Shown one piece after another: positions 23,296 through 54,580 of a DNA stretch of 60,349 bases. Source of the stretch: Pseudomonadota bacterium (GTDB lineage: Bacteria; Desulfobacterota; Desulfobacteria; Desulfobacterales; JBDRRP01); NCBI GenBank assembly GCA_043825735.1, contig JBDRRP010000121.1, positions 62,001 through 122,349 of the forward strand, read 5' to 3'. Numbering within the stretch: position 1 is the first letter of the stretch; every line of letters begins with the position of its first letter. A model generated the notes under the pieces. That model did no database searches and was not told the origin of the DNA. It was given only the letters and a program-made list of their open reading frames with translations. The position numbers and the translations under genes were made by a program.

Positions 23296-24420
<1,125 letters not shown>

Positions 24421-24434
24421 AGCGAGTGCCACTC

Positions 24435-28202: not shown

Positions 28203-28272
28203 CTATTGGTTTTCTCTGCGTCTCAGCGCCTCTGCGCGAAAACGGTCTTTCAGATCATTGCCCAAAGAAAAA

Positions 28273-28399: not shown

Positions 28400-28440
28400 G
28401 CTTAGATAAGTTTACATTTCACTTTCGCGGCGGGTTTGAT

Positions 28441-29001
28441 TCACTGACGGTGGATTTCAGATGGACCGGCCTCATCCCTTCCTGCGGTCTGCCCTTTCAG
28501 CCGGCAGCATTTTTTCCTGAACACCCCCAACTTCAGCAGCACCTTTGCCCCCACCAGTTGCAGGACTGCCACGACCGCGCCGGCCCATCGCCAGCGGCGG
28601 GTGTCCAGATCGAGCACCCACCGCCGGCCGCCGGGCAGGGGCCGCTCGATGCGCACCGCCCGGCCCAGCACCTGATCCGGAGCGACCGGATCGTCGAAAA
28701 CGATCAGCGCATCGCCTTTGGTGCGAAATACCTTCCTTCCGGCCGAATCCAGATCCACCCTCACGATGCGATGCAGCACCGGCGCCCCCTGCGTGTTTTT
28801 GAAATACACGACGTCTCCGGCGCGAAGTTTCGCTGTATCGACCGGCCCCACGACGACCCTGGCGCCGGACGGCACCAGCGGCCGCATACTGCCTCCGGTG
28901 ACCTTAAAGCGCACCGCACTGCCACGGCCGAGAATCTCCGCCACCAGGGCGGTGACCTGTGCTGAAGATGCGTGGGTGCTCATCGGAAGATTCCTCTCCA
29001 T
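28441..29001 (-). CDS. S24/S26-family peptidase
   Basis: VTGGSMRP (catalytic Ser), GDVV, VLHRIV, TKGD, QVLG; no N-terminal TM, C-terminal hydrophobic helix. Confidence 0.85.
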   Translation of the reverse strand: MERNLPMSTHASSAQVTALVAEILGRGSAVRFKVTGGSMRPLVPSGARVVVGPVDTAKLRAGDVVYFKNTQGAPVLHRIVRVDLDSAGRKVFRTKGDALIVFDDPVAPDQVLGRAVRIERPLPGGRRWVLDLDTRRWRWAGAVVAVLQLVGAKVLLKLGVFRKKCCRLKGQTAGRDEAGPSEIHRQ

Positions 29002-29010
29002 GGCCGGCGC

Positions 29011-29943
29011 CTATGCTCCCATCAACCGCATCAGATGCACCAAGGCATCGACACGGGGGGTGAACATAAAATCGCTCATGGGAACTTGTGCACTCAGTGC
29101 GCCGCAGGTGGACAGCACCGCATCGCCCGGGGTCCGGTCAAAGAGGGGAATCGAAACCACGGGCAGCAGTTTCACCAGCGCCTCTCCCGGGGTCAATTCA
29201 GTGGCGGCGGTATCCTCGGACTTGTTGAGAAAAAACACCCCTGCCAGAGGCACGCCGATGTTGGCGGCAATCCCCGCATCGCCGGGCCAGGGCGTGCCGT
29301 AGGCCATCCACCCATCGTTTACCCGGCGAACGATCATCCGGTCGTCGCTGAGCAGGGTGATCCTCGCGTCGGCAGCCAACAGCGAAGCCAAGGTGCTCTT
29401 TCCGGCACCGGATTTTCCAGGAAATAGGTATCCCCGGCCATTGACGATGGCCCCGGCGGCGTGAAGAATGATCCCTGATTGCCTTGCCAGTCGAAGCATC
29501 ACCAGGATCTGATCCAGTGGGTAGTGGATCGGGTTCCGCAGCACGACCTTAGATGATGTCTCCTGCCAGAAATCCTCGTGGCAGTGAAGTCGACCCTCGA
29601 TAAAACGGTGGTCCGCCGACAGGCGCCACAACGGCGTGGCCACGCCGGGCGGCTGAAGTTGCAAAACATTTCTGGTGGTGGATGTCCACAAAGACCAAGC
29701 CTGCCGGCTATCGAAGCACTTCACCAGCCCGGCCTCCCGCTCCGGCATGGGCTCACGGCAGATGGTGATATGTACGTGCGCGGCGGTTGCCGGCGGCGAC
29801 GATGGGCGGTGGCGGAAAAACGCCTGCATGGCCGATCCCGTTTCCTGAACGCGAATATCCGGATCGCCGCTCAGACAAATGGTGACGCCGGCGATATCGA
29901 CCGTGGCAAGCAGCGTCACGCCATCCTCCGCTCTGGTCGCCAT
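29011..29943 (-). CDS. HPr-kinase-related P-loop protein of peptide-modification clusters
   Basis: ILHAAG, GKSGAGKST Walker A, LLSDDR, GTPW motifs; start placed at ATG 29943. Confidence 0.8.
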   Translation of the reverse strand: MATRAEDGVTLLATVDIAGVTICLSGDPDIRVQETGSAMQAFFRHRPSSPPATAAHVHITICREPMPEREAGLVKCFDSRQAWSLWTSTTRNVLQLQPPGVATPLWRLSADHRFIEGRLHCHEDFWQETSSKVVLRNPIHYPLDQILVMLRLARQSGIILHAAGAIVNGRGYLFPGKSGAGKSTLASLLAADARITLLSDDRMIVRRVNDGWMAYGTPWPGDAGIAANIGVPLAGVFFLNKSEDTAATELTPGEALVKLLPVVSIPLFDRTPGDAVLSTCGALSAQVPMSDFMFTPRVDALVHLMRLMGA

Positions 29944-30902
29944 GAACGCCGGTGTGCCAAACGACAAGTATGAAGCACCCACCGGGGAGTTTCCATCAGC
30001 ATGGTCTTCAGGGTCTGGCCGGGGCTCACCACCGCCGCCCGAGGGAACACAGGATACCGGTAGGAGGTCACCCGCCGGCGCTCGGCAGCATAGTCTTGCG
30101 TAGCGAGGGCCTTCAGCCGGGCCATCTCTTTTTTTCTCAAATAGCGAAAAAGGCTGTATCCCATGGCCGCCGCCTCGGGCTCTGCGGCGCCGATAAAATC
30201 GAAGGAAACGCCGGGCCAATGCCTTATGGCGGCGTTGAACCGTCTGAAGGCAAGATGCTCCAGGCGACGCCGGCGCGCGTCCGCCGGGTGTCCAGACCTG
30301 CGGCGCATCCCGATGAGGGCCAGGCGGTACAGATCACTTCCGGAATCCCGTTGAAAAATGGCTGCGCCAACGATGTCGTTTTCCAGTCGGACAATGGAGA
30401 AGATGCGGTGCTCCACTGCCACCGACAACGAAGACCGGTCCTGGACGCTTATCTCCGGATGATTATCGGAGGGCCGGGAGACCACCGTCAACGCAGCGGC
30501 CGTCACCGTATAAGCCAGACTCAGTGTGGCCGGGTCCCCGACGCGCCCCGCCTCCACAAGGCAGCGTGGCGCCAGTAGCGCATCCAGCGGGAAGTCTTTC
30601 ATCATTTCATCAAATAACGCGCCGGTCCTGTAACCGTCATGGCGATGGCCAACCGCATCGGCACTCTGACGGCTGGCAAACCAGGCATGCGCGGCAATCC
30701 CGGGATGCCCCAGTGCCCGCGGCGGCGGCATTCCCTCCAGATGGTGAATGGCGGCGTGTGTGATGTAGTTTCGGATGTCTTCGTAGTATCGTGCAGGAGT
30801 ACCCCGAAACTGAAGCCCCCGTTGCACCAGTATACGGTCCTGGGCCCTGTGATAGGCCAGGGCCAGCCGGCGCAAGACTTGCGTTTTGACACGCGTGGCC
30901 AT
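29916..30902 (-). CDS. hypothetical protein, possible GNAT/FemAB-like C-terminal fold
   Basis: Co-oriented ORF filling the gap; pattern RLENDIVGAAIF...LEHLAF...GVSFDFIG loosely resembles a GNAT fold. Confidence 0.6.
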   Translation of the reverse strand: MATRVKTQVLRRLALAYHRAQDRILVQRGLQFRGTPARYYEDIRNYITHAAIHHLEGMPPPRALGHPGIAAHAWFASRQSADAVGHRHDGYRTGALFDEMMKDFPLDALLAPRCLVEAGRVGDPATLSLAYTVTAAALTVVSRPSDNHPEISVQDRSSLSVAVEHRIFSIVRLENDIVGAAIFQRDSGSDLYRLALIGMRRRSGHPADARRRRLEHLAFRRFNAAIRHWPGVSFDFIGAAEPEAAAMGYSLFRYLRKKEMARLKALATQDYAAERRRVTSYRYPVFPRAAVVSPGQTLKTMLMETPRWVLHTCRLAHRRSWRPERRMA

Positions 30903-31080
30903 TTTTAGAGATACCTCATGGCACAGAAAAACCAGGGTTCGCGCCGGCAAATGGATGTAGCACAGGAAAAGACAACCGAGAAATCGGGGTGCGGTGCAAC
31001 AGTGCGCACTGTCATAATTTTATGGACCATGGGTGGCCCAAAGCCTCGCCGCTGCACGTTGGGTGGGCAAGGTGGTGCAA

Positions 31081-31269
31081 TCAGGACCCGGCGCCGTAGC
31101 ATTGGCGGGGAAAGGTACAGACAGCCTTGCCGTTGCCGAAACCGGCGGTACCAACCGCCTGGGTTTTGCAGCCGACAGCCAGGACCTCCTCGGCAGCCAG
31201 CTCGATGATGCGCAGTACGGGCGTCTCGTAGGAACGTTTATCCTTTTTGCCATCATCCCTGTCGGTCAT
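31081..31269 (-). CDS. putative RiPP precursor peptide (62 aa)
   Basis: MTDRDDGKKDKRSYETPVLRIIELAAEEVLAVGCKTQAVGTAGFGNGKAVCTFPRQCYGAGS; YxxPxL leader motif, 3 Cys, GGGAG RBS, overlaps the rSAM stop. Confidence 0.85.
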   Translation of the reverse strand: MTDRDDGKKDKRSYETPVLRIIELAAEEVLAVGCKTQAVGTAGFGNGKAVCTFPRQCYGAGS

Positions 31270-32362
31270 GTCGGTCTTCTCCCTTCCTGTATTCCAGAAT
31301 CCGCTCCAGACGATGGGTCCCCAACGCACACAGGTATGGGGAGTGGGATTCCTCATCACCGTTTTCAAGCCGGAAAAACGCCGGACACATGCCGCATAAT
31401 ACCCGCTTCGGGCATGCGTTGCAACCGAATCCGGCGCCGGCCCTGCGCTGGCGCACAGCCGGGATCACCTTCTCCCACCCTTCCATGAACGATCCGCTCT
31501 TAAGATCGTAGCGCGGGCTGTCCACCAGCAGGCAGGGCTGCAAAAAGCCGGCAGGGTCGATGTGAAATGCGCTTTGCCCGGTACCGCAGCCATAGAGTGT
31601 CTCCAGCACGGGGCAATCCTTCATGGTGTCGTAATAGTCGGCCCACTGGCGAAGCGCCTCGGGATCGTCCAACTCACAGGCTACCGCCAATTGTGGATCC
31701 ACCCGGAGATCAATGGGGCCCTTGTCTCCGTCAAGGCGGGGGAAAATGGCCGGATCGAAGCGAAAATCGACTCCCCGCGCATCGGCCATGGCCCTCATGG
31801 CCGTCAACTCCTCGGCATTCAAGGTCATGAGGATGGTCTTCAGGCCGTAGCGTACACCGGCGGCGGCGAGCCGATCGATGCCGTTCATGCAGCGCCGATA
31901 CGATCCGGCCACCCCGGTCACCCGTTCATAAACGGCCGCGGTGGCCCCGTAGACGCTCACCTCCACCCCGTGGGGCGGCAGGTCGGCAAACAACGCCGCC
32001 ACGGAATCGCTGACCAAGGTGCCGTTGGTAAACACGGTCACCAGCAGGCCGCTCAGTTTGGCATGGGTGTAGATGCCGGGGAAATCAGGTCGGAGTAAGG
32101 GCTCGCCGCCGGAAAGAAGAAGAAAAAGGCAACCGGCGGCAGTAATGTCATCGATGATGGCGTGCCACTGGCCGGTGGTCAGCTCATTGGCACCGCCGTC
32201 GCCGCACCGAGCCGCCCCCGCATAACAGTGGACGCAGCGCAGGTTGCAGCGGTGGGTGAGGTCGATACTACCGGCGGCCGGTACACGCCCCCGGGTCACC
32301 GATTCAGCCATCCGATCGAGAAAGGCGGTATCGTTGATCAGGGTGTACGGACAGCCGTCCAT
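31253..32362 (-). CDS. radical SAM/SPASM-domain peptide maturase
   Basis: CNLRCVHC, SGGEP, FTNG; C-terminal CGTG..QPC..CNAC..LCGMCP..LC auxiliary-cluster cysteines. Confidence 0.93.
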   Translation of the reverse strand: MDGCPYTLINDTAFLDRMAESVTRGRVPAAGSIDLTHRCNLRCVHCYAGAARCGDGGANELTTGQWHAIIDDITAAGCLFLLLSGGEPLLRPDFPGIYTHAKLSGLLVTVFTNGTLVSDSVAALFADLPPHGVEVSVYGATAAVYERVTGVAGSYRRCMNGIDRLAAAGVRYGLKTILMTLNAEELTAMRAMADARGVDFRFDPAIFPRLDGDKGPIDLRVDPQLAVACELDDPEALRQWADYYDTMKDCPVLETLYGCGTGQSAFHIDPAGFLQPCLLVDSPRYDLKSGSFMEGWEKVIPAVRQRRAGAGFGCNACPKRVLCGMCPAFFRLENGDEESHSPYLCALGTHRLERILEYRKGEDRHDRQG

Positions 32363-32366
32363 GGGA

Positions 32367-32672
32367 TCACCGGACCCTGACGATAAGCCCGGCGGCAGCC
32401 AGATCGGCGATCAGGGCCGCGGTGTCGGTGGCCGCCTGAGCGGCATCGGTGTCGAAATCGACTGTCACCGCGGAGGTGATCTGGCCCAGAGAGGCGGTGC
32501 CGTCGATACGCTGCCAGATAAAATCCGCCACGGGATTGAGGGCAAAGATCCGCTGCATGTCGGCCAGCTCACCCCGGATCGGCACCAGCAGGGATTCTCC
32601 GGCGATCGTCCGGTGGACGATGTCCTTTTGCTTGTCAAACACGCATTGGTCCGACACCGCGATTTCGCTCAT
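32367..32672 (-). CDS. PqqD-family RiPP recognition element
   Basis: VHRTIAGESLLVP, FALNPVADFIWQRIDG, LIADLAAAGLI. Confidence 0.92.
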   Translation of the reverse strand: MSEIAVSDQCVFDKQKDIVHRTIAGESLLVPIRGELADMQRIFALNPVADFIWQRIDGTASLGQITSAVTVDFDTDAAQAATDTAALIADLAAAGLIVRVR

Positions 32673-32692
32673 GAATCACTCATCCCTTTTCA

Positions 32693-32761
32693 GTCACCCC
32701 GGCGAAGGCCGGGGTCCAGTGGATATAAATACTTCTGGATGCCGGCCTTCGCCGGCATGAC
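32693..32761. repeat. GTCA-type palindromic REP-like element
   Basis: GTCACCCCGGCGAAGGCCGGGGTCCAG...CTGGATGCCGGCCTTCGCCGGCATGAC. Confidence 0.85.
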
Positions 32762-32795
32762 GGGAAACATGCTATTTACGGATCCATCAACAAGC

Positions 32796-32922
32796 TTGAC
32801 AGTCCCGTAAAAAGTCTGAAATCACCACAGAGGGCGCTGAGATAACTTAATAAGTATTCAGTATATTCTCTGCGATTCTCTGCGGTCTCTGTGGTTTAAA
32901 ATCACTTTTTACGGTTTTTAAA
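32796..32922 (+). repeat. composite palindromic repeat, GTAAAAAGTC..CACAGAG family, copy 3
   Basis: TTGAC..CGTAAAAAGTCTGAAATCACCACAGAG..CTCTGTGG..CACTTTTTACGG. Confidence 0.85.
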
Positions 32923-32977
32923 GATTTATCCGCGGCCATAAGCCTTCGGTACATATCCGTGCCCGCGCTTTCCCCCA

Positions 32978-35900
32978 TCAATCCGAAAACGCCGGCATGA
33001 TGAGCGCCGGATCGCCGAGCAGGTTGTAAATCGCCGTTAAATGGGTATCCCCGGAGCGCTCGCTGTAATTGCGCAGTGACTGTAGAATCATGCTGCCCAG
33101 CCGACGCTCACCCACCGCGGCGCTCAGTTGACGCGCGTATTCCTGGTCGAGCCACACGGCATTTTCATTGATGGAAAGCCCCGACGGCGACCAGACGGCG
33201 ATGGCCCCGCCTGCAGGCCATTTGAGCATGGCTTCTCCCAGCGTATCCACGCCCGGGATTCCATAATTGCCGACAATACAGGTCAACGCCGTCAGAACCG
33301 GACGCTGCGTACCGTTGGTCAGGTTCGGAACATCGACGAAGAGATCGAGCAAACTGGCGATGCCGGCCGACGGGTTGTAACCGGCCAGCCGGTCGTAGCC
33401 ACCGTGGCCGAGGTAGTTGAACAGCACCGCCCCGCCGTTGATCGCCGCAACGAGATCGGTGTGGGTCTTGCTGTCATCCTTATAAACCTTAACAACGCTG
33501 AGGCCGCTTGGCAGCAACACCGCAACCGAGTCGCTGTCCGACTTGAAATTGTTGGTCTCCCCGGCGTGCTCGGCCCCCCCGGCGCTCATGATCGCCTTGG
33601 TGCGCCACGGGCCGCTGCCGCTTTCAAAAGCCAACGCCTGATCGATCATGGCGCCCAGTTCGACCTGGCTCGTGGCCGGCAAACGGCCGATGGCCAGATC
33701 CGGTACGCCGTCGCCGGTGATGTCGGCTTGGGTCTGATCCGAGGCAAACAGTCCGTTGGCTGTTCCCACCAGCATCGTCGGCAGTTTGTTGTCTCCCTTG
33801 TTCTCGTTGTTCTTGTAATCGTAGGTGCCGTTGCCGGCCAAAACGACAAACTGCGGCGCCCGCTGCCACTGACCACGGGCAAAGGTCAGAAATTCCTTTA
33901 TGGCTTCGGGGCTGTACAGGCCGTGGTTGAACGTATCCACGATCTCTTCAAAGCTCACCGCGCGCCCCGCCAACCCCTGGTTGCGGCGGTAGTCCACCAG
34001 TCGCTGGGCTTCGGTCAGAAACTCGGCCGGTGCGATGACCAGGTAGTCATAGGCGTTGGTCGATTGGCGCAGGTCGCTGTCGGTCACCGCGGCCAGTGTC
34101 GCGGGTCCGACCAATGAATCCGCCAGCACCGCCACATAGGGCGTTTCCGGAGTATCGGGTTTGAAGGTGACCTGGTAGTTTCCGGCCGGTCCGTCTATCA
34201 GAGTCTCGGTCACCCGTTGCGGAAAATGCGGATCGGTCACATCGAAGACACGAATGTCGGTTCCGGTAAACCCGGAGACCGTCACCACGGTGTTGCCACC
34301 GCCGGTAAACGCCAGGCGGTTGCCGGCGGCCGCGTATGTCCGCAAATAGGTGACGTCTATAGCATCAAGGGCAAACCGATTGAGAGCGGCGCCGGTATCC
34401 GGGATGTCGGCCATGACAAGGTAAGTGGTGCCAGGCGGCCCCAGCAGCGGTCGCAGATCACCGGTGATAATCGTATGCGGCGCTATCCCGTCCCAGAGGC
34501 CGTCGCCCACCTCAGTGAGAGTCACACCACCGTTGGTGGTAACAAACACTTTAACGTGATGATCCAGCGCAACCAGGGGATCGTCATAAGCGCCGTACAG
34601 GTGCACGGCAGCCGTCACCGGACCAGTGCCGGCATCACCTTCCAGCGGTATCGCCAACAGCTCGAAAATAGGGCCGAAACCGGTCTGCGTATAGGACTTT
34701 ACCCAGAAATCAGATTGGGGGTCCGTGAAGTAATCGGTCAGGGCATAGACATCCTGCTCCATGTGAATCTTAGCAGTAAAACTTTGTCCTCCAGGAGCTG
34801 GCGAGAGAGCGCCCCCACCACCGGCTACCGGCCTTGCCCCGGCCAGGGACTGGATGACATACAGGGCTTCGGCAAGATCCACCCGGTTGTTGCCGTTGAC
34901 GTCGGCGCCGGAAGCGGCGTAATTGCCGCGCACCCCTGTGCCAATACCGGAAGCCACCTGGAGCGAAACGATGGCATCAGCCAGAGTCACGCCGTCAGTG
35001 CCCGTCACATCGCCGGCAGCAGTGCCAGTGTCAGCTATCACCTGCCCGGTGCCGGGTCGCAGCCAGTATACGTTGGTGCCCGAATAGATGCTGTCGAGAG
35101 CGACTGCATAAAAGTATAGCCCGCTGTTATCTGCCGCTGGCTGATACGGCACCGCCCGGCCGGCCCGACTCAAGGCCAATTGCCCCTCGGCCAGCAGGGT
35201 CGAGACCGTTGTTGAATCAAGCCCCAGCAGAGCCTCGATCTGTGCGGCATCGACAAAATACAGGCCGTCGCTCGTGATGCTGATTTTAATGGCGTCCCCG
35301 GTGGCCGGGGTACTGGCGAAGGCCGCACGTGAAAACAAAGCCATCCGACGGGCCGGCGGCGGCAGACCGTTGCTGCCATGGGCGTCGCGCGCAAAATCGC
35401 CGTCCAAAGGCGCCAGTACCGCAATCTTATCCGGCACGCTGCCCACGGTGACGCTGTAGGGACCATATCGGTTCACTTGTCCACGCGCCTCGATCTCTTC
35501 GATGAGATAGGAAACGCTCTGGCCGGCGCGCACTGAAGGATCGACCAGTCGATATATACCGCCATGAGGGGTTCCTAATAGGCTCGCCACCGGCCGGGCG
35601 TTCACCGGCATGTAGGCCGATGACGAATCATCCCGGCGAAAAATATTGAAAGCGGCCGTGCCGACTTCAGATGCCGTCTCCCAGTAAACGACGCTGCGGC
35701 CGCCATCCTCATAGGCGCCCACATCCGAGAGCACCACCAGGGTGGCGACAAAGGCCGTAGCCGTTTTCTTGTCGCGCGTCGTATCCGCCGGGTCCTCGTA
35801 GTAGAGCTGGAGCGTGGGATTGGTTCCCGGGGCCACATAAAGCACATTGGCAGGATCCGGATATGGTGGATCGCTGGGGCCAGGTGTCGGCAGACAGTCA

Positions 35901-38900
35901 GCCGGCACGGCACAGGCAATGATGGGCAACTCGTAGCGCTGCCCGCTGCTGTTGTTGGCGAATATTCCCGTGTTCACGCCGGTCTCGTAGAGGGTTACAA
36001 TGACCACGTCCCCATTTAGCGGATTGGTCACTCTTACCGTCACCGTATCGATGCCGTTGGCGTTGGTATTGCGGTCCTTGTCCACCAGTTTGAGGTAGGC
36101 GGGCACCGTGGCGGCGCCCGAATAATTGAAGCTGTTTCCCGGCACCAGATTTCCGGCCGCGTCGGTAAAATTGGGATCACCGAAGGTGCGCACTTCAATG
36201 GCACGCGTGGCCACTGCCGTATCGGCAAACCCGTCGGCCGATACCAGCACGGAGTTGGTGAGCGTCCCCGGGACGGTGGGCTGGGCTATCGTTGCGCGGA
36301 AAGTCACCGTCATCGACTCCCCGGGCTGCAGGCTGTAGCCGTCGGCGGCCGCCACCAGATACGGCGGGGCGTTGCCGGTGCGCACCACCGGCGTTGCACC
36401 CTTGAATTGCGAAAAATCGATCCCCTGCACCCAGGCCGGAAAATCAGTGCCGTACCGCCGGCGCTCAAGGCGGATGGTGTCCGTGTCGATAAACCGCGCC
36501 GAGAGCATGGGCCGCGGATAGGTTGTGTTGGTGGCGCCCTGTCCGTTATATGAAAGCGCCATACCGTAGCCCTGGAGCTTAACGGCGGCACCGGGATAGT
36601 CCACATCGACGATGTTGTTTGTGGCATCCCCGTCGGGCTTGAAAATGTGCTGCACCCTCAGCGCTCCGTGCGTCAGTGCATAAACCTCGAAGTCCACCGC
36701 GTTGTTGTTGTACTCGATGCCGGCGGCAAGCAGGGTTTCATTGGTGTTTTGGGTCACGCCGTTGCCCAGGGTGAGCAGCACACCTTCGGCCGCGTCACCG
36801 ATGCCGTTGTCGTTGGTGTATCCGGTGCCCCATACCCAGGTGTTGGCCCGGGCTACTGAGGTGATGGCCGCGGTGTTGTACTCATTGGTGGCATTGGCGC
36901 CGTTGCCGCCGTTATTACCCTGAACGCGGGAGCGCTGGACGTTCCAATTTGCGCCCCACTCCACCACCATCACGGTGCTGGTGGTCGCGCCCTGGGAATT
37001 GCCCCGGACCCAGTTGATGGTGTTGGTGCCCGAGGGATAGAACCGGACGAAACTGTTTCGGGTGCTGCTGACAGTGGCCTGGGTCGAAGAGGCGCCGGCG
37101 CCGTTGAACCCGCCCACCAGCATCACTTTCGACAGATCCGACCAGGCGGCCGATGTCGCCGTACCGCTGCCCGTGCCGTTGTTATGCGTCACCTGGAGCG
37201 CATCGCGCAGCCGGAACGCATCGGCGTTGGCCGGATCGAGGGACTCCACCACGGTCACCACCCCCATCCAGGAATTGGTCGCCGTGTTGCGGTAGAACCG
37301 GATCGCGTCGGGCCGGCTCAGACCGGTGAGATCGCCCGTGCCAAAGGGATCGCCCACGAGCGCCGCGTAGTTAGCGTCGGCGCCGATGTCGTTATTCTGG
37401 GTCCCGTCGCCGGCACTGCCCTGAACGATTACGAAGTAGTCCGGCGCCAGGTTCTGTTTTAGGACCAGCTCGTGGATGGTGCCGGTGAACTCCCCGGCGC
37501 CGATGAAGTACTCGGTCACCCGGATGCGGTGATCCGGGGCCGACACCTGGGTGCTGCCGCTGACATAGGTGAGCCCGGCGGGCAGAAGGTCACGCACCGT
37601 CACCTTGTAGATCGGCGCAGTTGAAGCGTTGGTGACATTGACGGTATAGGTCAGTTCGTCTGCGGGAGATGCTTTGTCTCCGGCATAATAAGGCGATCCG
37701 GCGTTGACCGTCTTGCTCACGGCCAGGTCCAGAATGGAAACCGTATCGGTTGCCGTATTGTTGCCGGGGTTGTTCTCACCGACGCCCAGATCCACCGTGG
37801 CGGTGTTTTGAATGGTCGCCGGCGCGCCGCCGGCCACTGCCACCGTCAGGGTGATAGCCGGCAAGATGGTTCCGGCGGCAACCGGACTGCCGGCACTGGC
37901 AGCATAGGTCCAGGTCACGGTGCTGCCAACAACATTGACGCTCCAACCCGTGCCGGTGCTGCTCACATAGGTCATGCCGCTCGGGATGATGTCGGTGACC
38001 ACGATGTTCGCGGTCTGGGCGGCAGGACCGTTGTTGGTCGCCCGAATGGTGAACGTGCCGTTCGCGCCGCGGGCGAATGTTCCCGAATGGGTCTTGGTGA
38101 TGGACAGATCCGCGCCGCTGGCCGGCAGCACGTTTACGGCGGCAACGCCCCCGTCGGTGACGGTGCCCTCGCTGCCTTCGGCGGCCGTGACACTGGCCGT
38201 CCAGTAGTCCACCGGACCGGCGGCGGGGAACGTGTAGGCCCTTTCGTAGGTCTTTGTGGCCAGCCCGCTGTCGGCGACCTGGGTCATGGCGGCTGCGCTG
38301 AGCCGGACCGTCCCCTCCGAGTCCACCATGTCAAGCGTGGCCCCGCTGATGTCAGAACTGCCGAAGGGATCACTCACCACGGCGCGCACATAAAGGCTCG
38401 CCCCCGGTGTCGTGGTGGTCACGACGCTGCCGCCCGGATAGGCGGCCGAGTAAAACGCCACGCTGTCCACGTTGATGACGGTGGTGGCCTGGTAAGCTGC
38501 CCTGGAGACGACGGCCCCGGTGGAAATGGGAAACACGTCCAAGGGATCACCGTAGCCGGCGTTGGTCTGGTTGATTCTGAGGGTCAGGGCCGTGCCGGTC
38601 GGAAGCGCCAGGTTGCCCGATATCGGCACATTGAAGGTCGTCGTGGTATCGACGAAATTTTGAAGGGAAAGGTTTTGGGTGACGTTGCCGATAGTCCCGG
38701 TGGCGGCACCGGAGTAGCCCAGGGTCACCGTGATGGCGTGGGTCGTCGAGCCGGTCCAGGTGCCGTCGTAGCCGTTTCGCACGGTCAGGGTCACCGGAAT
38801 CGTACCGGCGCCGGCGCTGACAGCCAGTGGGCTCTGGCTCGCCGGCGTCATGGTCCAGGTCCGGTTGCCGCCGCTGGTCACCTCCACCGCGCTCTGGGGC

Positions 38901-41900
38901 GCCGTGGGCGGCGTTCGCACCAGTTGGGTGCTCTGGTTGAGATACAGGGGCTTTTGACCCTGGGCCGGCAGCGTTGAGCCCCTCACGACGACCTGGGGTG
39001 CCTGCACGGAGGGGGCGCCGATGCCTTTGGGGTTGGTGACGACGGCGGTGTTGGCGATGATGGTCCCGTTGGGAGCGGCGGCGTTGACGGTCACCCTGAA
39101 CTTGATCACCTCCTGGCTCAGCTTGGCGACATCGAAACCGGTGATATTAAGATAGCCGGTGCCGTTTGTGCCGCCTGTGGGGGTGGAACTGTCGGTGGCG
39201 CCGGCAGGAATCGGCAGGACGACGGTGAACGTATTGACATTGGCCGGGATGTCGTCGGTCACCGAAACGCTCTTGGCCTTTTTGTCGCCGGTCTCGATGA
39301 GGGTGATGGTGTATTCCAGAATGTCGCCGGGCTCCACATCGCCGCCGTTGATATCAAAAACGGTCTTGGTCGAGGTGGACAGATCCGCCACCGTGACCTT
39401 GAAGGGGTCGATGGCCGTGTTGTTGGCCACTGCGTAGTCGGTAATGGTGCCCGACACCACGGCCGTCGCTTTGGCGTCCACCGGCACGACGGTCGCATTG
39501 AATTCGGTGTTGACTACCAGGGTCGGCAGGGACGCCCCCACAGCCAAGCTGCCACCATAGGTGAACGTAAGAACCTGCCCGACTTGACTCGCCAGAGTGT
39601 AATCTGCCGTGGGTGAATACGTTTTGTAATCAATACCGACAGGCAGGGTCACCACCACCGTGATGGGGCCGGGCTCGTCGGACGGACCGTTGTTGGTGAC
39701 ATTGACCGAGTAGATTACATCGTAGGTGTCGACCGGTTGGGTATGGGTGATGGTGACGGCGGCATCCTCGGTGGGCGAAGCGAAAATGATGACGTCTTCG
39801 TCGTCCACAGGATCCATGAACGACGGCGTTCCCGTGTCCTGGGCAACGGTGCCTATATCGTCAAGAAAACCCGTCTGGGTACTGGTCACGCCGGCGGTGT
39901 TGCTGTAGGTTCCCGCAGCGACCGAGCCGGCGACATCGGCCTTGAAGCGGACGGCGACCGACCCGCCCGGCTGAATGGTCCAGGTGCCCCAGGACAAACT
40001 GGTGGCACCGCTGGCTGGATCACTGGAGGGGGGGAAGGACGCTCGCGTAGCGAGCGTTTCGATCGGAACGCCGACGTTGCTGTTGAAGGTGAACCCTGCG
40101 GGAAGCGTGTCGGTGATGACGACATTGGTGGCGGTGGCGGTACCGGGATTGCGGACAACGATCTCCCAGGTCACCGGGGTGACGCCGCGGACGGCGTATT
40201 TGAAAATAGCGTCCTTGTCGATGGTGAGCACCGCAGTCTGCACCGTCACGTCTTCATCGTCTTCAGGGTCCAACCCTGCCGGCGTGTGCTCGTCCTGGGC
40301 CACCGGCCCGGCGTCATCGATAAGCCCGGTCTGTGTGCTGTTGACAAACGCGCTGGCGTCGTAAGTGCCCGGCGGCACCGAAGCGGCCACGTTGGCGACG
40401 AAGGTGAGCACCACAGAGCCGCCCGGGCTGATGCTCCATGTCCCCCATTGGGGATTAGCGGTTCCGACAGTGGGGTTCGTTGTCGGCGAACGGGTGGCGC
40501 TGGAGCCGACCGCACTGGTTGTACTGGCATAGGTGAATCCCGGCGGCAGGGCCGCGGACAGCGTCGCCCCGGTGATGGTGGATGCCCCGTCATTTTTGAC
40601 CGTAATCGTATAGGTGGCCTGACTGCCTGCCGCCACCGTATACGGCGTGGGATCCGTATCCATATCGACGGTGAGCGAGACCACGGTCACGTCTTCATCG
40701 GTCTCCGGATCCTCACCGCTGGGCGTGCCCAGATCCTGGGCGACCTTGCCGCGGTCGTCTATAGCGAAGGCCGAACCACCCCAGGTGCCAGCCGCCGAGA
40801 CGGTATTGTCGTAGGTGCCCGGCAGTACGGTGGACGCCACGTTCACCCGGAAGACGATGGTGGCCTGCCCCTGAGAATCCAGAGTCCAGGTGCCCCAGTT
40901 GAGCGTGCCGGCGCCGGCCGTGGGGGCGCTGGTGGCTGTTCTGGTCACGCCGGCCGTTTCTGCGTAGCTGACCTGGCTGTTGTACGTAAAACCCGTGGGT
41001 AGTACGTCATTGAGGGTGACACCGACTGCTTGGGTGTCGCTGATGTTTTTGATCCGCACCTGATAGTCCGCCGTCGCACCGCCCTGCACCGACGGCGTCA
41101 GGGTATCCTTGTCGATGGTGACCGGCGTGACGTCGATCACGGCGTTGTCAAAGGGGGAAAAGATCTGGGAGCCCATCAGGCGTGTACCCGAGGCCTGGGC
41201 CTCGTTGGTGTACTGTCCCTGGCCTACGGTGCCATCGATAACCACCTGGTAGATGACGGTCAGGGTCTCGTTGGCCGCCATGTTCAGATTGGCCAGGGTT
41301 GCGTTGCTCCATGTGAGCGTCTGGCCGGTGATGGCGGGGTTGGCGGCGGCCCCGGTGATGACCGAGTTATCCGGCAGGGTGATTACCGCCGTGTTGTTCA
41401 CGAAGCTGAAACCGGCCGGCAGCATGTCTTTGACCGACAGGGTGGCCACCGGGAAATCGAAGGTCTTCACGGTGACGGTAAACGTGGTGGTCTCACCGGC
41501 CACCGGCGGCAGCACCGTCGGATCGGCGGTTTTTTCAAGGCCCAGGGTCTGATCGATCCACGCCGGCGGCATGGGCAGGTTGGCCACCCCCAGGTCGAGA
41601 TATGGATTGCCTGTACCGGCAGAGTCCGGGTCCTGGCCCCAGGCCACGACGATGGGCCCGTTGGCGAAAATGTGGGTGCCGGTGTTGACATTGTCCGGGT
41701 CAAATACCTTGAGCGTCTGCAGCCGGTCGCGGGTCACGGTCTGGTCGATAATCCCGTCGGTGGGGCTGTAATCGATGAAGATGACCGTGTCGTTGAAGAC
41801 CGGTGTCACGAAGGCCGGTGATCCGTTGCTGGTGGGCGCATCCTCAGATGTTCCCGGCGCCCAGCTCAGAAAATACTCGTCGGTCAGAAAATTGACCGGT

Positions 41901-43036
41901 ACCAGGTCAAAGCCCCAGTCATAGGTGCGCGATTCGGTGTCCACTGACGAAATGCCCCAGAACACGTTGTCGGAACGAAGATAGACACCTGAATTTACTG
42001 GGACAAACCTGCCGGCACCATCCCGATAACTCACGGTGTCGCGCGCGGGTATGGTGAAACTGCCTGAACCGGTGGTATCCTCGTAGCTGATGATGATGGC
42101 GGTGGTGTGGGGGTTGTAGAGATAGATATCGGTGTTGCCGTTGTTGGCGCCGGGCACGGGGCTGTAATATTCGTTATCCCACAAGGCTTCGGGCATGGCG
42201 TTGAAGCCCCGGCACTCATAGCGGTCCCGCGTGTCGCTGCCCACGACGATGTGCACCTGCACCGGCAGATCGCCATGGATGCGGGTGCCGGCGTTGACGT
42301 CGAAAAGCTGGGTGGTTTCACCTTTGCTCAGGGTGGTGGTCACATCCACATAGGGGGTGTTGGGGTCGTCGATCTGAATGGGGTTGTTGTCGTAGACCGA
42401 CTGGACCAGTACGTAGACCCGTTCGAAATCGGAATAGTTCTTGGGTGCCCCGGCAAGATCCAGACCGACGGGTACGGTGTAATCGGTCAGAAACGGCTTG
42501 ATGGGAAACAGCTCCCAGGCGAGGGCGAACACCGGGCCGGCCGACTCGGTCCAACTGGCGCGCGATACGGTGACCGATGTGCCGGCCACGTAAATGCGGT
42601 CCCCGCCGTCGTAGTAAACCGATGTGCCCCGCGGGTTGACCGGGATGTTGTCTCCCGTTAGGGTGATGACTTCACCGGCGTTTCGGACCCACTTCTGATC
42701 GTAGGTGGCATCCGGATTGGCAGGGTCGAAATCGTAGCCGTCTTCCCAGTGGTCGTAATAGACCGTGGTGTTGTCACCGGTGACTGTGATGGATATGACC
42801 GAATGCATCCCCTGCGCGGCGTCGAGTTGAGTCGCCTGGCCGAGATTGACCGCGATCTTGTTGTCCATATCACTGAACACCGCCCACATCTGTTCGGTGC
42901 GACCAGGAATGTAGTATTCCGAATATCCTGAAGATACTGCCGCGTGGACGGTGCTGACCGCCGCCGGAAGCATCACCAATGCACATAGGGCCACAAAAAG
43001 ACCCAATCGAACAAATCGATGTGAATTGTGCGGCAT
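32978..43036 (-). CDS. giant secreted surface protein: DUF11/Ig-like repeats, dockerin-like module, C-terminal C25 (gingipain/PorU-like) cysteine peptidase domain
   Basis: Signal peptide (RFVRLGLFVALCALVMLPAAVSTVHA); repeated K..Y.I.V.N..D.LP.GF.Y..N Ig domains; DYLVIAP, FVVLAG, PDLAIGRLP, YLGHGG (His), ALTC (Cys), YNLLGDP; ATG 43036 has a GGGAG RBS. Confidence 0.9.
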   Translation of the reverse strand: MPHNSHRFVRLGLFVALCALVMLPAAVSTVHAAVSSGYSEYYIPGRTEQMWAVFSDMDNKIAVNLGQATQLDAAQGMHSVISITVTGDNTTVYYDHWEDGYDFDPANPDATYDQKWVRNAGEVITLTGDNIPVNPRGTSVYYDGGDRIYVAGTSVTVSRASWTESAGPVFALAWELFPIKPFLTDYTVPVGLDLAGAPKNYSDFERVYVLVQSVYDNNPIQIDDPNTPYVDVTTTLSKGETTQLFDVNAGTRIHGDLPVQVHIVVGSDTRDRYECRGFNAMPEALWDNEYYSPVPGANNGNTDIYLYNPHTTAIIISYEDTTGSGSFTIPARDTVSYRDGAGRFVPVNSGVYLRSDNVFWGISSVDTESRTYDWGFDLVPVNFLTDEYFLSWAPGTSEDAPTSNGSPAFVTPVFNDTVIFIDYSPTDGIIDQTVTRDRLQTLKVFDPDNVNTGTHIFANGPIVVAWGQDPDSAGTGNPYLDLGVANLPMPPAWIDQTLGLEKTADPTVLPPVAGETTTFTVTVKTFDFPVATLSVKDMLPAGFSFVNNTAVITLPDNSVITGAAANPAITGQTLTWSNATLANLNMAANETLTVIYQVVIDGTVGQGQYTNEAQASGTRLMGSQIFSPFDNAVIDVTPVTIDKDTLTPSVQGGATADYQVRIKNISDTQAVGVTLNDVLPTGFTYNSQVSYAETAGVTRTATSAPTAGAGTLNWGTWTLDSQGQATIVFRVNVASTVLPGTYDNTVSAAGTWGGSAFAIDDRGKVAQDLGTPSGEDPETDEDVTVVSLTVDMDTDPTPYTVAAGSQATYTITVKNDGASTITGATLSAALPPGFTYASTTSAVGSSATRSPTTNPTVGTANPQWGTWSISPGGSVVLTFVANVAASVPPGTYDASAFVNSTQTGLIDDAGPVAQDEHTPAGLDPEDDEDVTVQTAVLTIDKDAIFKYAVRGVTPVTWEIVVRNPGTATATNVVITDTLPAGFTFNSNVGVPIETLATRASFPPSSDPASGATSLSWGTWTIQPGGSVAVRFKADVAGSVAAGTYSNTAGVTSTQTGFLDDIGTVAQDTGTPSFMDPVDDEDVIIFASPTEDAAVTITHTQPVDTYDVIYSVNVTNNGPSDEPGPITVVVTLPVGIDYKTYSPTADYTLASQVGQVLTFTYGGSLAVGASLPTLVVNTEFNATVVPVDAKATAVVSGTITDYAVANNTAIDPFKVTVADLSTSTKTVFDINGGDVEPGDILEYTITLIETGDKKAKSVSVTDDIPANVNTFTVVLPIPAGATDSSTPTGGTNGTGYLNITGFDVAKLSQEVIKFRVTVNAAAPNGTIIANTAVVTNPKGIGAPSVQAPQVVVRGSTLPAQGQKPLYLNQSTQLVRTPPTAPQSAVEVTSGGNRTWTMTPASQSPLAVSAGAGTIPVTLTVRNGYDGTWTGSTTHAITVTLGYSGAATGTIGNVTQNLSLQNFVDTTTTFNVPISGNLALPTGTALTLRINQTNAGYGDPLDVFPISTGAVVSRAAYQATTVINVDSVAFYSAAYPGGSVVTTTTPGASLYVRAVVSDPFGSSDISGATLDMVDSEGTVRLSAAAMTQVADSGLATKTYERAYTFPAAGPVDYWTASVTAAEGSEGTVTDGGVAAVNVLPASGADLSITKTHSGTFARGANGTFTIRATNNGPAAQTANIVVTDIIPSGMTYVSSTGTGWSVNVVGSTVTWTYAASAGSPVAAGTILPAITLTVAVAGGAPATIQNTATVDLGVGENNPGNNTATDTVSILDLAVSKTVNAGSPYYAGDKASPADELTYTVNVTNASTAPIYKVTVRDLLPAGLTYVSGSTQVSAPDHRIRVTEYFIGAGEFTGTIHELVLKQNLAPDYFVIVQGSAGDGTQNNDIGADANYAALVGDPFGTGDLTGLSRPDAIRFYRNTATNSWMGVVTVVESLDPANADAFRLRDALQVTHNNGTGSGTATSAAWSDLSKVMLVGGFNGAGASSTQATVSSTRNSFVRFYPSGTNTINWVRGNSQGATTSTVMVVEWGANWNVQRSRVQGNNGGNGANATNEYNTAAITSVARANTWVWGTGYTNDNGIGDAAEGVLLTLGNGVTQNTNETLLAAGIEYNNNAVDFEVYALTHGALRVQHIFKPDGDATNNIVDVDYPGAAVKLQGYGMALSYNGQGATNTTYPRPMLSARFIDTDTIRLERRRYGTDFPAWVQGIDFSQFKGATPVVRTGNAPPYLVAAADGYSLQPGESMTVTFRATIAQPTVPGTLTNSVLVSADGFADTAVATRAIEVRTFGDPNFTDAAGNLVPGNSFNYSGAATVPAYLKLVDKDRNTNANGIDTVTVRVTNPLNGDVVIVTLYETGVNTGIFANNSSGQRYELPIIACAVPADCLPTPGPSDPPYPDPANVLYVAPGTNPTLQLYYEDPADTTRDKKTATAFVATLVVLSDVGAYEDGGRSVVYWETASEVGTAAFNIFRRDDSSSAYMPVNARPVASLLGTPHGGIYRLVDPSVRAGQSVSYLIEEIEARGQVNRYGPYSVTVGSVPDKIAVLAPLDGDFARDAHGSNGLPPPARRMALFSRAAFASTPATGDAIKISITSDGLYFVDAAQIEALLGLDSTTVSTLLAEGQLALSRAGRAVPYQPAADNSGLYFYAVALDSIYSGTNVYWLRPGTGQVIADTGTAAGDVTGTDGVTLADAIVSLQVASGIGTGVRGNYAASGADVNGNNRVDLAEALYVIQSLAGARPVAGGGGALSPAPGGQSFTAKIHMEQDVYALTDYFTDPQSDFWVKSYTQTGFGPIFELLAIPLEGDAGTGPVTAAVHLYGAYDDPLVALDHHVKVFVTTNGGVTLTEVGDGLWDGIAPHTIITGDLRPLLGPPGTTYLVMADIPDTGAALNRFALDAIDVTYLRTYAAAGNRLAFTGGGNTVVTVSGFTGTDIRVFDVTDPHFPQRVTETLIDGPAGNYQVTFKPDTPETPYVAVLADSLVGPATLAAVTDSDLRQSTNAYDYLVIAPAEFLTEAQRLVDYRRNQGLAGRAVSFEEIVDTFNHGLYSPEAIKEFLTFARGQWQRAPQFVVLAGNGTYDYKNNENKGDNKLPTMLVGTANGLFASDQTQADITGDGVPDLAIGRLPATSQVELGAMIDQALAFESGSGPWRTKAIMSAGGAEHAGETNNFKSDSDSVAVLLPSGLSVVKVYKDDSKTHTDLVAAINGGAVLFNYLGHGGYDRLAGYNPSAGIASLLDLFVDVPNLTNGTQRPVLTALTCIVGNYGIPGVDTLGEAMLKWPAGGAIAVWSPSGLSINENAVWLDQEYARQLSAAVGERRLGSMILQSLRNYSERSGDTHLTAIYNLLGDPALIMPAFSD

Positions 43037-43288
43037 GTGCGTATCTCCCTGACCACGAACAGTCATAGTTGTCTAAACTAATACAACTATCAATAAAAAC
43101 AAATTGATAAAATAGTAAGCTGGTTCACAGTCGCCAGATTCCTTGGCACTGGATGGTCACCCAACGGGTAGGACAATCCGTATTTTAAACCGCCAACTTC
43201 ACTATGCGACTACAGTCTGTCGGGTATGGATTGACGTTGCGAGCGATCATGATCCATGGCTGACACCGATGCAGACCTCCCTTTAGGG

Positions 43289-43315
43289 CTATCGGCCGAA
43301 ACCGTCAGCCCTTTA
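43289..43315 (-). promoter_or_regulatory. sigma28 (FliA)-type promoter facing the giant C25 gene
   Basis: Minus strand TAAA-gggctgacggtttcg(15 nt)-GCCGATAG versus consensus TAAA-N15-GCCGATAA. Confidence 0.7.
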
Positions 43316-43320
43316 GTCAT

Positions 43321-43461
43321 TGTCCATCCATAAACGGCATCTTTTGTCCCCCGGCGGCGTACTCACTCGTCTTCAATCCTCAAAATAGCAGGCTATTCCT
43401 CCGGTTAAAGACTCGTTCGAGCCTTGCCAGGAGCCAAAATCTACCATTTCTGGATGGACAC
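43321..43461 (-). repeat. structured palindromic repeat, copy B
   Basis: Termini TGTCCATCCATAAA / TTTCTGGATGGACAC; its reverse complement aligns with 43720-43926. Confidence 0.85.
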
Positions 43462-43487
43462 TAATTAGAATCGTGCATAACAGGAAC

Positions 43488-43504
43488 AGCAATTCTCATG
43501 CCCA
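43488..43504 (-). promoter_or_regulatory. possible sigma54 -24/-12 promoter
   Basis: Minus strand TGGGCATGAGAATTGCT gives GG-N10-GC with TTGC. Confidence 0.4.
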
Positions 43505-43719
43505 TTACCTATCCAATTATTAGGTAGCAACCGTCAAAACCGCTCTACCGTGGGGGTGATTGGTTTAAACCCTGGCAATGTCAAACAGTTGCCGCGCCTT
43601 GCCTTTGATGTAAAAAAAGTATAATCGGTATCAATTCACAACCCAACCTACTGAAAAAATATGTTTTTCTTATTGGCCTCTTCATTTTTTGAAGTCGAAT
43701 ATCCAAAATGATGTAGTTT

Positions 43720-43926
43720 GTGTCCATCCAGAAATGGTAGATTTTGGTTCAGAGCAAGGCTTGAGCATTTTCGAAACCGGAGGAATAGCCTGCTATTTGT
43801 CTTGGAAACCCGGTGCTTCGCACCAGGTTCCAGACGAACAACCCGAGGACTTGTCCGCCTTCGGCGGATTTCGAAAAGTGTGAAAACGCCGCTCTGGGCC
43901 AAAAGATGCCGTTTATGGATGGACAC
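43720..43926 (+). repeat. structured palindromic repeat, copy C, with two internal hairpin insertions
   Basis: GTGTCCATCCAGAAATGGTAGATTTTGG ... CCAAAAGATGCCGTTTATGGATGGACAC; inverted relative to copy B. Confidence 0.85.
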
Positions 43927-43942
43927 TATCTGGTTGCCGCTC

Positions 43943-45043
43943 ATGACGACGCCCACTAGAGACCTGTTGATCGCCTTATCGAGAACGCCTGCGTCACCCT
44001 CACCGGCAGACACCCTGCGCTGCGCACATTCAATACGTCACCGGTGGGACGCGCTGCTTACCGAGGCCAACCGTGAGGGAATGACGGGGCTTTTGTATTT
44101 AGGGCTCCAGCAGGCAGGGTGCATGGATGGGGTGCCGGCGTCGTTCGCTGCGCGCATCTCGTCCGTCTACTATCATACGATGCGTTTTAACCTGAGACTC
44201 ATGGCGGATTTGGAAGAGATTCTACAGGAATCCTCTCGGATCGGTTTGGAACCGATTGTCCTCCAGGGGATGGCGCTTCAGGGCGATGTCTATCCGGACC
44301 CAGGGATGCGCCCCATGTCGGATATCGATCTGTGGGTTGACGGTTCACGGTTTGTCCGGTTTGCAACGCTACTGGGCCGGATGGGATACCGACAGGACGC
44401 CATTTATCCAGGTGCCTTTTCCCGGGGGCCAACCAAACTCGACGTTCATACCCACCTCTTCTGGGCGGACCGGCTCAAATCACGAAAATGGCTGATACGA
44501 GGCTCTGTCGAAGGATTTATTGAAAACGCTGAACCGTTTCAAATCGGCGCCACCACCGCCCGGCGCCTTTGTGCGGAGGACCAGGTTCTTTACCTCGGCA
44601 TGCATGCGCTCAAGCACAATTCGGATCGGCTGATATGGCTGGTGGACATCGCCCGGCTACTGGCCATCATGACCGATGGAAAAAACCAACGCATGAGGGA
44701 CCGTGCCGAGGCCTTCGGTCTCACCCGTCAAACGGGCTATGTGGGATATCTCATCGGGCGATTGCTGGGCGAAAAAACGGGACTTGAGACTTGGGCAGAG
44801 GGAATGGGCCCGCTGGCTTCGTGGGTGCTTCGGCGGCGGGATAGCGGAAATGCGCTGCCGGTCTGGGCTCCGCTGGTGCTGTTCACTACGGGAAAAGATC
44901 TGCGCATCGGTGCCATGATGATGTGGGAAATGCTGTTTCCGGACAGAGCGGTCCTCAGGCAGGTCTTCGCTGACACGCCCTCTGCACCGTTGTGGCGCCT
45001 CTACATCCGCCGCCTCACGCAGTTCGGCCGCATGCTCAAATAA
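43943..45043 (+). CDS. nucleotidyltransferase family protein (NTP_transf_5-like, as in lasso/PqqD clusters)
   Basis: IVLQGMAL..VYPDPGMRPMSDIDLWV, LDVH, HALKH, LIWLVDI; start placed downstream of repeat copy C. Confidence 0.85.
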   Translation: MTTPTRDLLIALSRTPASPSPADTLRCAHSIRHRWDALLTEANREGMTGLLYLGLQQAGCMDGVPASFAARISSVYYHTMRFNLRLMADLEEILQESSRIGLEPIVLQGMALQGDVYPDPGMRPMSDIDLWVDGSRFVRFATLLGRMGYRQDAIYPGAFSRGPTKLDVHTHLFWADRLKSRKWLIRGSVEGFIENAEPFQIGATTARRLCAEDQVLYLGMHALKHNSDRLIWLVDIARLLAIMTDGKNQRMRDRAEAFGLTRQTGYVGYLIGRLLGEKTGLETWAEGMGPLASWVLRRRDSGNALPVWAPLVLFTTGKDLRIGAMMMWEMLFPDRAVLRQVFADTPSAPLWRLYIRRLTQFGRMLK

Positions 45044-54552: not shown

Positions 54553-54580
54553 GGAAAATGAAAACAGCCACCCATTCTGA

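Follow-up and report, generated by a model that had tools for sequence, protein, structure and literature searches.

A giant secreted protein with a PorU-like C25 peptidase and a candidate sorting domain beside a radical SAM peptide cassette in Desulfobacterota

The stretch of Desulfobacterota DNA analysed here (60,349 nt of contig JBDRRP010000121.1, assembly GCA_043825735.1; referred to as the window) carries on its minus strand the gene of a giant exported C25 peptidase, followed by a cassette of genes apparently devoted to a ribosomally made and post-translationally modified peptide (RiPP), and the question raised by this locus is whether the enzyme and the peptide belong to one process at the cell surface. 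The original prediction had seen here a surface sorting system rather than an antibiotic cluster. This is supported by PorU-like N-terminal domains in the enzyme and by a dedicated C-terminal signal domain, while the link of the cassette to C25 genes proved not to be obligatory. The combination is rated as being without a described counterpart, its sorting half as well supported in silico and the role of the peptide as tentative; a literature search, with subscription journals outside its coverage, gave no description of a PorU-like enzyme paired with a peptide cassette. The whole analysis is computational and coordinates are positions within the window, on the minus strand unless stated.

The giant protein and its PT domain

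The giant gene (43036-32978) codes for 3352 aa from its second ATG, with the open reading frame (ORF) open from 43066. As originally predicted, its product is an exported C25/DUF11 protein (PF01364, E 3e-68; PF01345 in eight stretches) with a hydrophobic, signal-peptide-like N-terminus (aa 1 to ~32; 42941..43036) recognised by hydropathy and having a putative cleavage site. Judged from the sequence, it is a cargo part, a putative sorting domain (here called the PT domain) and a PorU-like C25 enzyme in a single chain. The C25 catalytic domain (32999..34045) has its His3211 (codon 33406-33404) and Cys3253 (codon 33280-33278) intact, both being invariant across 15 alignment rows. It is preceded by a PorU-like N-terminal region (34052..35314), and a profile of the last 938 residues matched both the N-terminal domains and the C25 domain of PorU (6ZA2; E 2e-54; profile positions 140-848 with 6ZA2 residues 14-785); gingipains align with this profile over the C25 part alone. 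An AlphaFold model of the enzyme part (pLDDT 77.5) likewise has 6ZA2 as its top Foldseek match (E 4e-25). The cut-offs of the PorU models were not reached (NF033707, 155.7 of 420 bits; NF052324, 109 of 450 bits). A dockerin had also been claimed for the giant, and a dockerin-like piece is indeed present, but only as a short insertion (~34847-35014) inside the PorU-like region. The protein ends 7 residues past C25 with no membrane anchor or type IX secretion system (T9SS) tail behind it, and no T9SS C-terminal domain (CTD) of its own was identified (no PF18962 or TIGR04183 match). SprA and T9SS CTDs were found in none of five genomes, in searches whose positive controls gave no signal; PorV gave matches below cut-off alone, with its positive control detected.

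Directly preceding the enzyme part is the PT domain (aa 2431-2533; 35438..35746), which had been overlooked in the original prediction and is a candidate sorting signal, elsewhere forming the C-terminus of stand-alone secreted proteins. It is an immunoglobulin (Ig)/Fn3-like domain of ~105 aa with an invariant W-x-T-x-x-E, and it begins at a conserved Thr, where the scissile bond is predicted (Thr2432-Leu2433; 35738..35743). No convincing Pfam or NCBIfam model, that of the T9SS tail included, was found for it, and its nearest named cluster in the protein atlas, a T9SS-tail protein at 0.85, is a lead only.

Among 301 genomes of the phylum, the PT domain (E < 1e-15) was found in 17 and the PorU-like enzyme (E < 1e-150) in 16, with both present in 15; in G070, which has the enzyme without a paired PT domain, the enzyme gene is cut by the contig start. 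Seven genomes hold from 11 to at least 15 PT matches each. From the fetched loci (40 regions picked around top matches, not all matches) 86 distinct PT domains were obtained, of which 73 stand alone; among the 71 of these whose end is closed, 65 sit at most 60 aa from the C-terminus. A Thr stands at the start of 62/73 stand-alone and 12/13 fused copies, with a shift of one residue allowed. In several loci the giant is split, the PT domain ending separate secreted proteins and the enzyme being stand-alone.

A second sample, drawn as the top 120 among 441 database matches, comprised 117 non-enzyme proteins, 114 of which have the domain at most 60 aa from the C-terminus. In this sample the motif has the consensus P-T-A-V (P in 105, T in 93, A/S/G in 112 and V in 108 of 116), the N-terminus is hydrophobic in 86 of the 102 proteins starting with Met, and 44/111 distinct tails consist of a membrane helix and a basic end, with 40 of these 44 repeating the motif ahead of the helix. 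Relatives of the PT/enzyme system are labelled Anaerolineae, Acidobacteria, Aminicenantes, Verrucomicrobia and others. A minimal C-terminal signal, P-T/N/S-A-V/I-x-L with a membrane helix and an Arg-rich end, was also observed (P0082-P0201, several labelled Anaerolineae); no CTERM model scored above cut-off for these tails, and such a signal may occur without the PT domain as well.

The PT domain of the window and the enzyme part were folded together as two chains in three runs. The complex model scored 0.71 (single runs 0.25, 0.71 and 0.72) versus 0.09 for the best control, the mark for this score being one reached by 116/157 solved complexes and 2/215 mismatched pairs. The runs share at least 75% of contacts, with a partner pLDDT of at least 70. 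The interface holds residues 2429-2434, where Cys3253 touches Leu2433 and His3211 touches Val2434, which places the bond expected from conservation, Thr2432-Leu2433, at the catalytic centre. The model supports binding between enzyme and PT domain, and both a substrate and a self-inhibitor would fit it. PorU itself is described as cutting at X/(GSA)(VLI) (PMC4560394) and as favouring amines as nucleophile (PMC8545088, PMC11285876). The C25 enzyme probably cuts the PT signal, as part of a sorting system with a signal other than that of the T9SS.

The cargo part (~2400 aa; 35747..42940) appears adhesin-like from family scans. It consists of an unnamed ~470-aa N-terminal domain common to three other giants, DUF11/RrgB-type Ig repeats and further beta-rich domains without a family name. 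A non-repeat insert of ~380 aa within it (36407-37549) is without a family match.

The peptide cassette and its linkage to the enzyme

The cassette opens with the gene of a PqqD-type RiPP recognition element (RRE; 32367..32672; PF05402, E 2e-14), followed by that of a radical SAM/SPASM enzyme (rSAM; 31253..32362; PF04055, E 1e-19) possessing CxxxCxxC and seven invariant C-terminal Cys. The three invariant Cys of the precursor are compatible with thioether chemistry of the sactipeptide/ranthipeptide kind, with no maturase model above cut-off, and no equivalog cut-off was reached by the rSAM. A search for related loci that took this one rSAM as query gave the same-genus genome, one weak match and nothing else.

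The 62-aa precursor (31081..31269) has a YxxPxL leader (YETPVL), an EEVL motif, three invariant Cys and a terminal Ser. Leaders of its family end in EE(A)VL-xx(x)-C and the terminal Ser/Thr is conserved (48 of 52 precursors); the invariance of the Cys is taken from a separate analysis, as the search pattern itself demanded three Cys and its count of 50/52 was not used. The residue after the leader 'VL' is A/G/S in all 17 precursors linked to an enzyme or PT domain versus 17/35 others, with the 'unlinked' group including short contigs and kin not being independent. This would fit either a core opening with a PorU-type (A/G/S)-hydrophobic pair or position -3 of an S26 cut before the Cys. The precursor was also considered as a lipoprotein (L-A-x-G-C), which was dropped as it has no hydrophobic segment.

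In many enzyme loci the precursor is of a second type (YxxPxI...GPAQ(T/A)-C, with a short core) and is accompanied by an RRE-fused rSAM. Members of this family, YxxPx(I/V)xTYSxEE...GPAQ(T/A)C, were seen in L227 (11832-11945), L228, L229, L231, L232, L236, L237 and L244; they have short Cys/Ser/Thr/Pro cores, mostly of ~6-12 residues, and lie beside RRE-fused rSAMs and stand-alone PorU-like genes. Three members were scanned and none scored above an NCBIfam cut-off. A small-x-small-Cys junction seems to be common to both precursor types.

ORF-X (29916..30902; 328 aa) is a rare accessory protein, with 17 representatives in all and unnamed clusters in the protein atlas. It had been called GNAT-like, for which there is a weak fold hint (HAT1, Z 5.6, root-mean-square deviation 4.3, 138 aligned residues; Foldseek E 4.6e-3; PF00583 at E 0.09 in one relative) but no family match. 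It could acylate or aminoacylate the peptide, and is fused to the S26 peptidase in L036, P0019 and P0023. The GTG start of the HprK-like P-loop kinase gene (29011..29919; 302 aa) overlaps the stop of ORF-X, and HprK-related models matched the kinase below their cut-offs. The archaeal-type S26 peptidase (28441..29001; TIGR02228, 56.5 bits with a cut-off of 51.85) has Ser38/His77/Asp97, no N-terminal membrane helix and a hydrophobic C-terminal segment, and is a candidate for the leader peptidase of the precursor. A PF14907 nucleotidyltransferase (NTase) with a DxD motif (43919..45043, plus strand; E 7e-42) is divergent as first described; its ORF start did not hold, as the first ~67 codons are a genome-wide repeat, and the start is likely at 43919 or 43943. 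PF14907 is present in 21/24 enzyme-bearing genomes, a raw count with no background rate beside it. Fusions of S26 with a nucleotidyltransferase (L238 10935-12785, minus strand) and of rSAM with kinase (L116 13785-15860, L117 6819-8828) suggest that these enzymes are tied into one pathway.

In the linear polyphosphorylated peptide (LPP) pathway LppA/B/K/S/D/N (Popov et al., 2026; PMC13381572), the S26 peptidase, LppS, with a Ser/His/Asp triad, is described as cutting the leader only with the RRE, and the kinase as phosphorylating a Ser. Across the enzyme-linked cassettes the part retained most often is RRE, kinase and S26, which is the LPP core, and the rSAM can be absent; in L233, L234 and L238, RRE and S26 are present with no rSAM detected.

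Linkage of such cassettes to C25 genes elsewhere, which the original prediction had offered for checking, was found: the two are adjacent in 5/8 other genomes of the order that have the closest rSAM type (E < 1e-80). Overall, 61 genomes of the order gave this rSAM in 9 (own included), the PorU-like enzyme in 10 (nine strong matches, and G012, where the gene runs into a contig end) and both in 8, with the genes adjacent in six and on separate contigs in two; the enzyme profile for this survey was built including five of its enzyme genomes and the window. Leaving aside the genome of the window itself, the phylum sample has 20 full enzyme genes, of which 15 were inspected, favouring genes near PqqD where a genome had several, and cassette genes adjoin the enzyme in 13 of these 15; the five uninspected genes have no PqqD within 10 kb, and counted by genome a cassette lies beside an enzyme gene in 11/15. 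Adjacency alone was used, as presence of PqqD per genome (134/301) is uninformative. Among the best 80 metagenome loci, a C25 gene was found in 14/26 close-rSAM loci of at least 6 kb, and in 10/16 of at least 10 kb (two near-duplicate pairs included) versus 1/16 for distant rSAMs. Two-rSAM cassettes with WxKP leaders were also observed, with no C25 in the fetched stretch (L026, L027, L028, L119-L122); L026 and L028 sit among polysaccharide genes.

All ORFs listed in the original prediction were found at their positions. The co-oriented series abuts or overlaps from pqqD onwards, with one exception, a spacer of 178 bp 3' of the peptide gene; between the giant gene and pqqD there is a gap of 305 bp (32673-32977), which consists mostly of genome-wide repeats (32673..32920) with up to 175 overlapping matches elsewhere in the genome. 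The same-genus genome has an identical gene order, and there the giant gene and pqqD abut. Distant rSAMs aside, the locus genes are each single-copy in their own genome. Contigs of the likely source run span 28372-32825 and 32888-43174 with zero mismatches or gaps to the window, a comparison not independent of the assembly. Two RNA runs of the same study gave no coverage, a result neutral as to expression. Scans for promoters and for terminators gave about as many matches as chance would (7 vs 6.5 and 17 vs 14.9), and Rfam gave no match anywhere in the window. It had been stated that no transporter is visible in the locus, and this holds for the annotated ORFs in Pfam and NCBIfam scans.

Proposed process and alternatives

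A sorting enzyme with a functionally coupled cassette is the reading cautiously favoured here. That the cassette contributes somehow to this envelope process is considered rather likely; that the matured peptide is the covalent acyl acceptor, a role suggested by analogy, is put forward tentatively. The full proposal, itself doubtful, is a RiPP linker in which S26 would free an N-terminal amine (or Cys), kinase and NTase would tie the terminal Ser via phosphate to polysaccharide, and the PorU-like sortase would add the PT proteins.

In this process the giant would be exported by its own signal peptide. Its C25 part would bind the PT domain, as is supported in silico, cut after Thr2432 and form a thioester with the ~2400-aa cargo; where the enzyme is stand-alone, the same reaction would occur in trans on many PT-tagged proteins. 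By analogy with PorU, an amine on a surface anchor would then resolve the thioester, with the cargo tethered and not shed. In the cytoplasm, following LPP and pseudomycoidin, the RRE would present the 62-aa precursor, the kinase would add phosphate, probably to the terminal Ser, the rSAM would cross-link its Cys residues as an accessory step, S26 would cut the leader after EEVL or right before the first Cys to yield a new N-terminus, and the PF14907 enzyme would join the phospho-Ser to a sugar. For pseudomycoidin (PsmK/PsmN), the terminal phospho-Ser is reported to gain a hexose in a PsmN-dependent step (PMC6993621). In the most speculative step, the matured peptide would be the acyl acceptor and serve as linker between cargo and exported polysaccharide, which would account for the missing peptide exporter.

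Several points weigh against this reading. On the enzyme side, G157 and G246 carry PT domains with no C25 found there, and the residue after the Thr departs from the PorU rule, being mostly Leu in Desulfobacterota cargo (41/73) and variable in the fused giants (L, A, R, Q, M); the fused PT copy may escape cleavage or act as a self-inhibitor. Both partners in the complex model come from the same chain, one run out of the three reached only 0.25, and likeness to the solved PorU and gingipain structures may contribute to its score. On the cassette side, no C25 is seen in 12/26 close-rSAM metagenome loci of at least 6 kb or, over the cut-off, in five phylum genomes with the closest rSAMs; conversely 5/23 enzyme loci are without an adjacent cassette (no PqqD was found in G135), and the counts overstate as kin are not independent. 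The NTase adjoins the enzyme in 5/23 genome loci and 0/10 enzyme-linked metagenome loci. The locus ORFs include no exporter to bring the cytoplasmic peptide and the exported enzyme together, and acylation by ORF-X, if directed at the new N-terminus, would block the proposed nucleophile.

The alternative that survives best, although unlikely, is that the C25/PT pair performs sorting or release and the cassette is a separate envelope module, for an LPP-like phospho- or glyco-peptide of capsule or biofilm, which would be inherited and regulated together with the pair without being joined covalently to the cargo. Cassettes without C25 do often lie beside polysaccharide export genes (wza, wzc, wzy or ABC-2 genes in L038, L048, L068, L113 and L114; no such genes beside L076 and L115), LPP clusters are located in capsule loci, and the text available names no protease partner for them (PMC13381572), and enzyme and cassette are on different contigs in G018, G012 and G100. 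However, elsewhere the enzyme gene stands among the cassette genes, in an order that varies and often with kinase and S26 on either side of it. This interleaving occurs with two precursor types and in several enzyme clades, which would be unusual for mere neighbours; the clades are from a quick tree of 37 enzymes, with four contig-truncated 'split' rows, used just for showing that there are several.

It is improbable that the matured peptide, instead of being an acceptor, regulates C25 (by inhibiting it, keeping it latent or activating it) or signals it to act. The tight linkage and the constrained three-Cys core would suit such a role, and PorU was deposited in the PDB as a latent dimer (entry title), which suggests that enzymes of this kind need control. 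Against this, the core between the Cys is highly variable, the core of the second precursor type has mostly ~6-12 residues, and the peptide is made in the cytoplasm with no exporter seen.

Quite improbable, too, is that the PT domain is a structural or inhibitory docking domain, in the manner of a prodomain, with C25 a nutritional or biofilm-remodelling protease and no sorting taking place. Poor conservation after the Thr in the fused giants would agree with this, gingipains carry inhibitory prodomains (4IEF title), and the active-site pose fits inhibition as well. On the other hand, a genome can have dozens of secreted proteins, unrelated to one another, with the PT domain at their end and often with motif, helix and basic tail behind it, and the enzyme is closer to PorU than to gingipains. 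That C25 matures the peptide, as a second protease or a ligase/cyclase, with the adhesin repeats only displaying it, is highly improbable. In its favour, the genes are co-oriented and adjacent, and peptide ligases are found among the cysteine peptidases of clan CD. Against it, the cassette already has S26 as leader peptidase, the precursor has no P-T motif, the distribution of the enzyme follows that of the PT domain much more closely than that of the rSAM cassette, and in the complex model the active site is occupied by the PT segment.

Neighbouring genes, significance and comparison with known systems

Elsewhere in the window, a polysaccharide export locus of lower GC content (41-49%) lies 8 kb from the NTase (52928-60120), with O-antigen ligase-like, Wzc, Wza fused to FG-GAP repeats and ExeA-like ATPase products; in G044, such genes are directly ahead of the giant gene. 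An UpxY-family antiterminator above cut-off (15596-16180, plus strand) could matter for long envelope operons. There is also an 851-aa ORF (8712-11267) fusing cysteine synthase and cysteinyl-tRNA synthetase (TIGR01136 and TIGR00435 above cut-off), and a GlmS-like protein (24342-28202, plus strand) of at most 1286 aa, roughly double the common length, whose long N- and C-terminal parts are without a family; its counterpart in the same-genus genome is likewise long (1249 aa). Intergenic repeat families are found at 28203-28430, 32673-32920, 43290-43490, 43670-43917 and 45070-45310, with tens to ~175 overlapping matches elsewhere in the genome.

Taken conservatively, the locus points to a C-terminal sorting signal of Desulfobacterota that is as yet unnamed and has a PorU-like enzyme of its own, and a self-contained cut-and-ligate enzyme could serve as a protein-ligation tool. 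If the reading of a sorting enzyme with a coupled peptide linker is true, uncultured anaerobes would possess a widespread sorting system whose acyl acceptor is a RiPP in place of the amino sugar of anionic lipopolysaccharide (A-LPS) or the peptidoglycan cross-bridge, and the LPP-type and phosphorylated lasso peptides encoded in capsule loci could be given a function. With the peptide as acceptor, RiPPs would come to include structural components of the cell envelope, and a mechanism would be at hand for the tie of kinase/nucleotidyltransferase RiPP clusters to capsule loci, a matter open in the text available of PMC13381572.

Like PorU and the CTDs of the Bacteroidota T9SS (6ZA2; NF033707; TIGR04183), the system has a C25 His/Cys enzyme with PorU-type N-terminal domains, one or few enzymes per genome with many cargo proteins ending in a shared Ig-like domain, and a P-T/A-V motif that fits the X/(GSA)(VLI) cleavage rule. 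It differs in that cargo, signal and enzyme are fused here, no tail follows C25, a RiPP cassette is linked, the signal domain has no convincing Pfam/NCBIfam match, to the T9SS tail or otherwise, and the PorU models remain below cut-off. As in Gram-positive sortase (LPXTG) and exosortase CTERM systems, many PT cargo proteins end in motif, membrane helix and basic residues, with Thr at the predicted P1; in contrast, the enzyme is of clan CD, family C25, and not of a sortase or exosortase fold, the motif is usually borne by a folded domain, and none of the CTERM models scored above cut-off in 28 cargo proteins scanned.

The SynChlorMet cassette reportedly has two rSAMs, compared with one here. 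With the SynChlorMet/GeoRSP cassettes (TIGR04248-04251; TIGR04302/04303) the locus shares PqqD, rSAM/SPASM and a kinase-like gene, with weak matches to each model. The SynChlorMet comparison suggested in the original prediction came out negative by the curated models, with scores far below cut-offs (ScmC 31/125, ScmD 33/100, ScmE 81/400 and ScmF 71/400 bits). An HprK-type kinase, a C-terminal Ser, a YxxPxL leader and a nucleotidyltransferase-family protein are shared with the lasso peptides paeninodin and pseudomycoidin as described in PMC6993621; unlike in these, no macrolactam synthetase or B2 protease is among the locus ORFs, and the locus is not of the lasso kind.

The LPP pathway, as presented in PMC13381572, has a discrete RRE, a YxxP leader, an HprK-like kinase, an archaeal-type S26 peptidase with Ser/His/Asp, an NTP transferase and capsule loci nearby, all of which have their likeness here. 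It is linear and without a cyclising enzyme, whereas here, on a gene-level reading, rSAM/SPASM and three invariant Cys are added; its leader ends in IxFETxxS with a phosphorylated Ser3, in contrast to EE(A)VL-xx(x)-C and a terminal Ser/Thr. The locus ORFs differ further in having no MsbA-like exporter and in having a PorU-like partner. A motif scan of 44 close metagenome loci likewise gave no such exporter, a scan that missed ABC-2 ATPases later caught by Pfam; the main text of PMC13381572 has no match for C25, radical, rSAM or gingipain. As these systems are defined, the locus is a member of none of T9SS PorU, LPP, lasso or SynChlorMet, being PorU-like on one side and LPP-like on the other.

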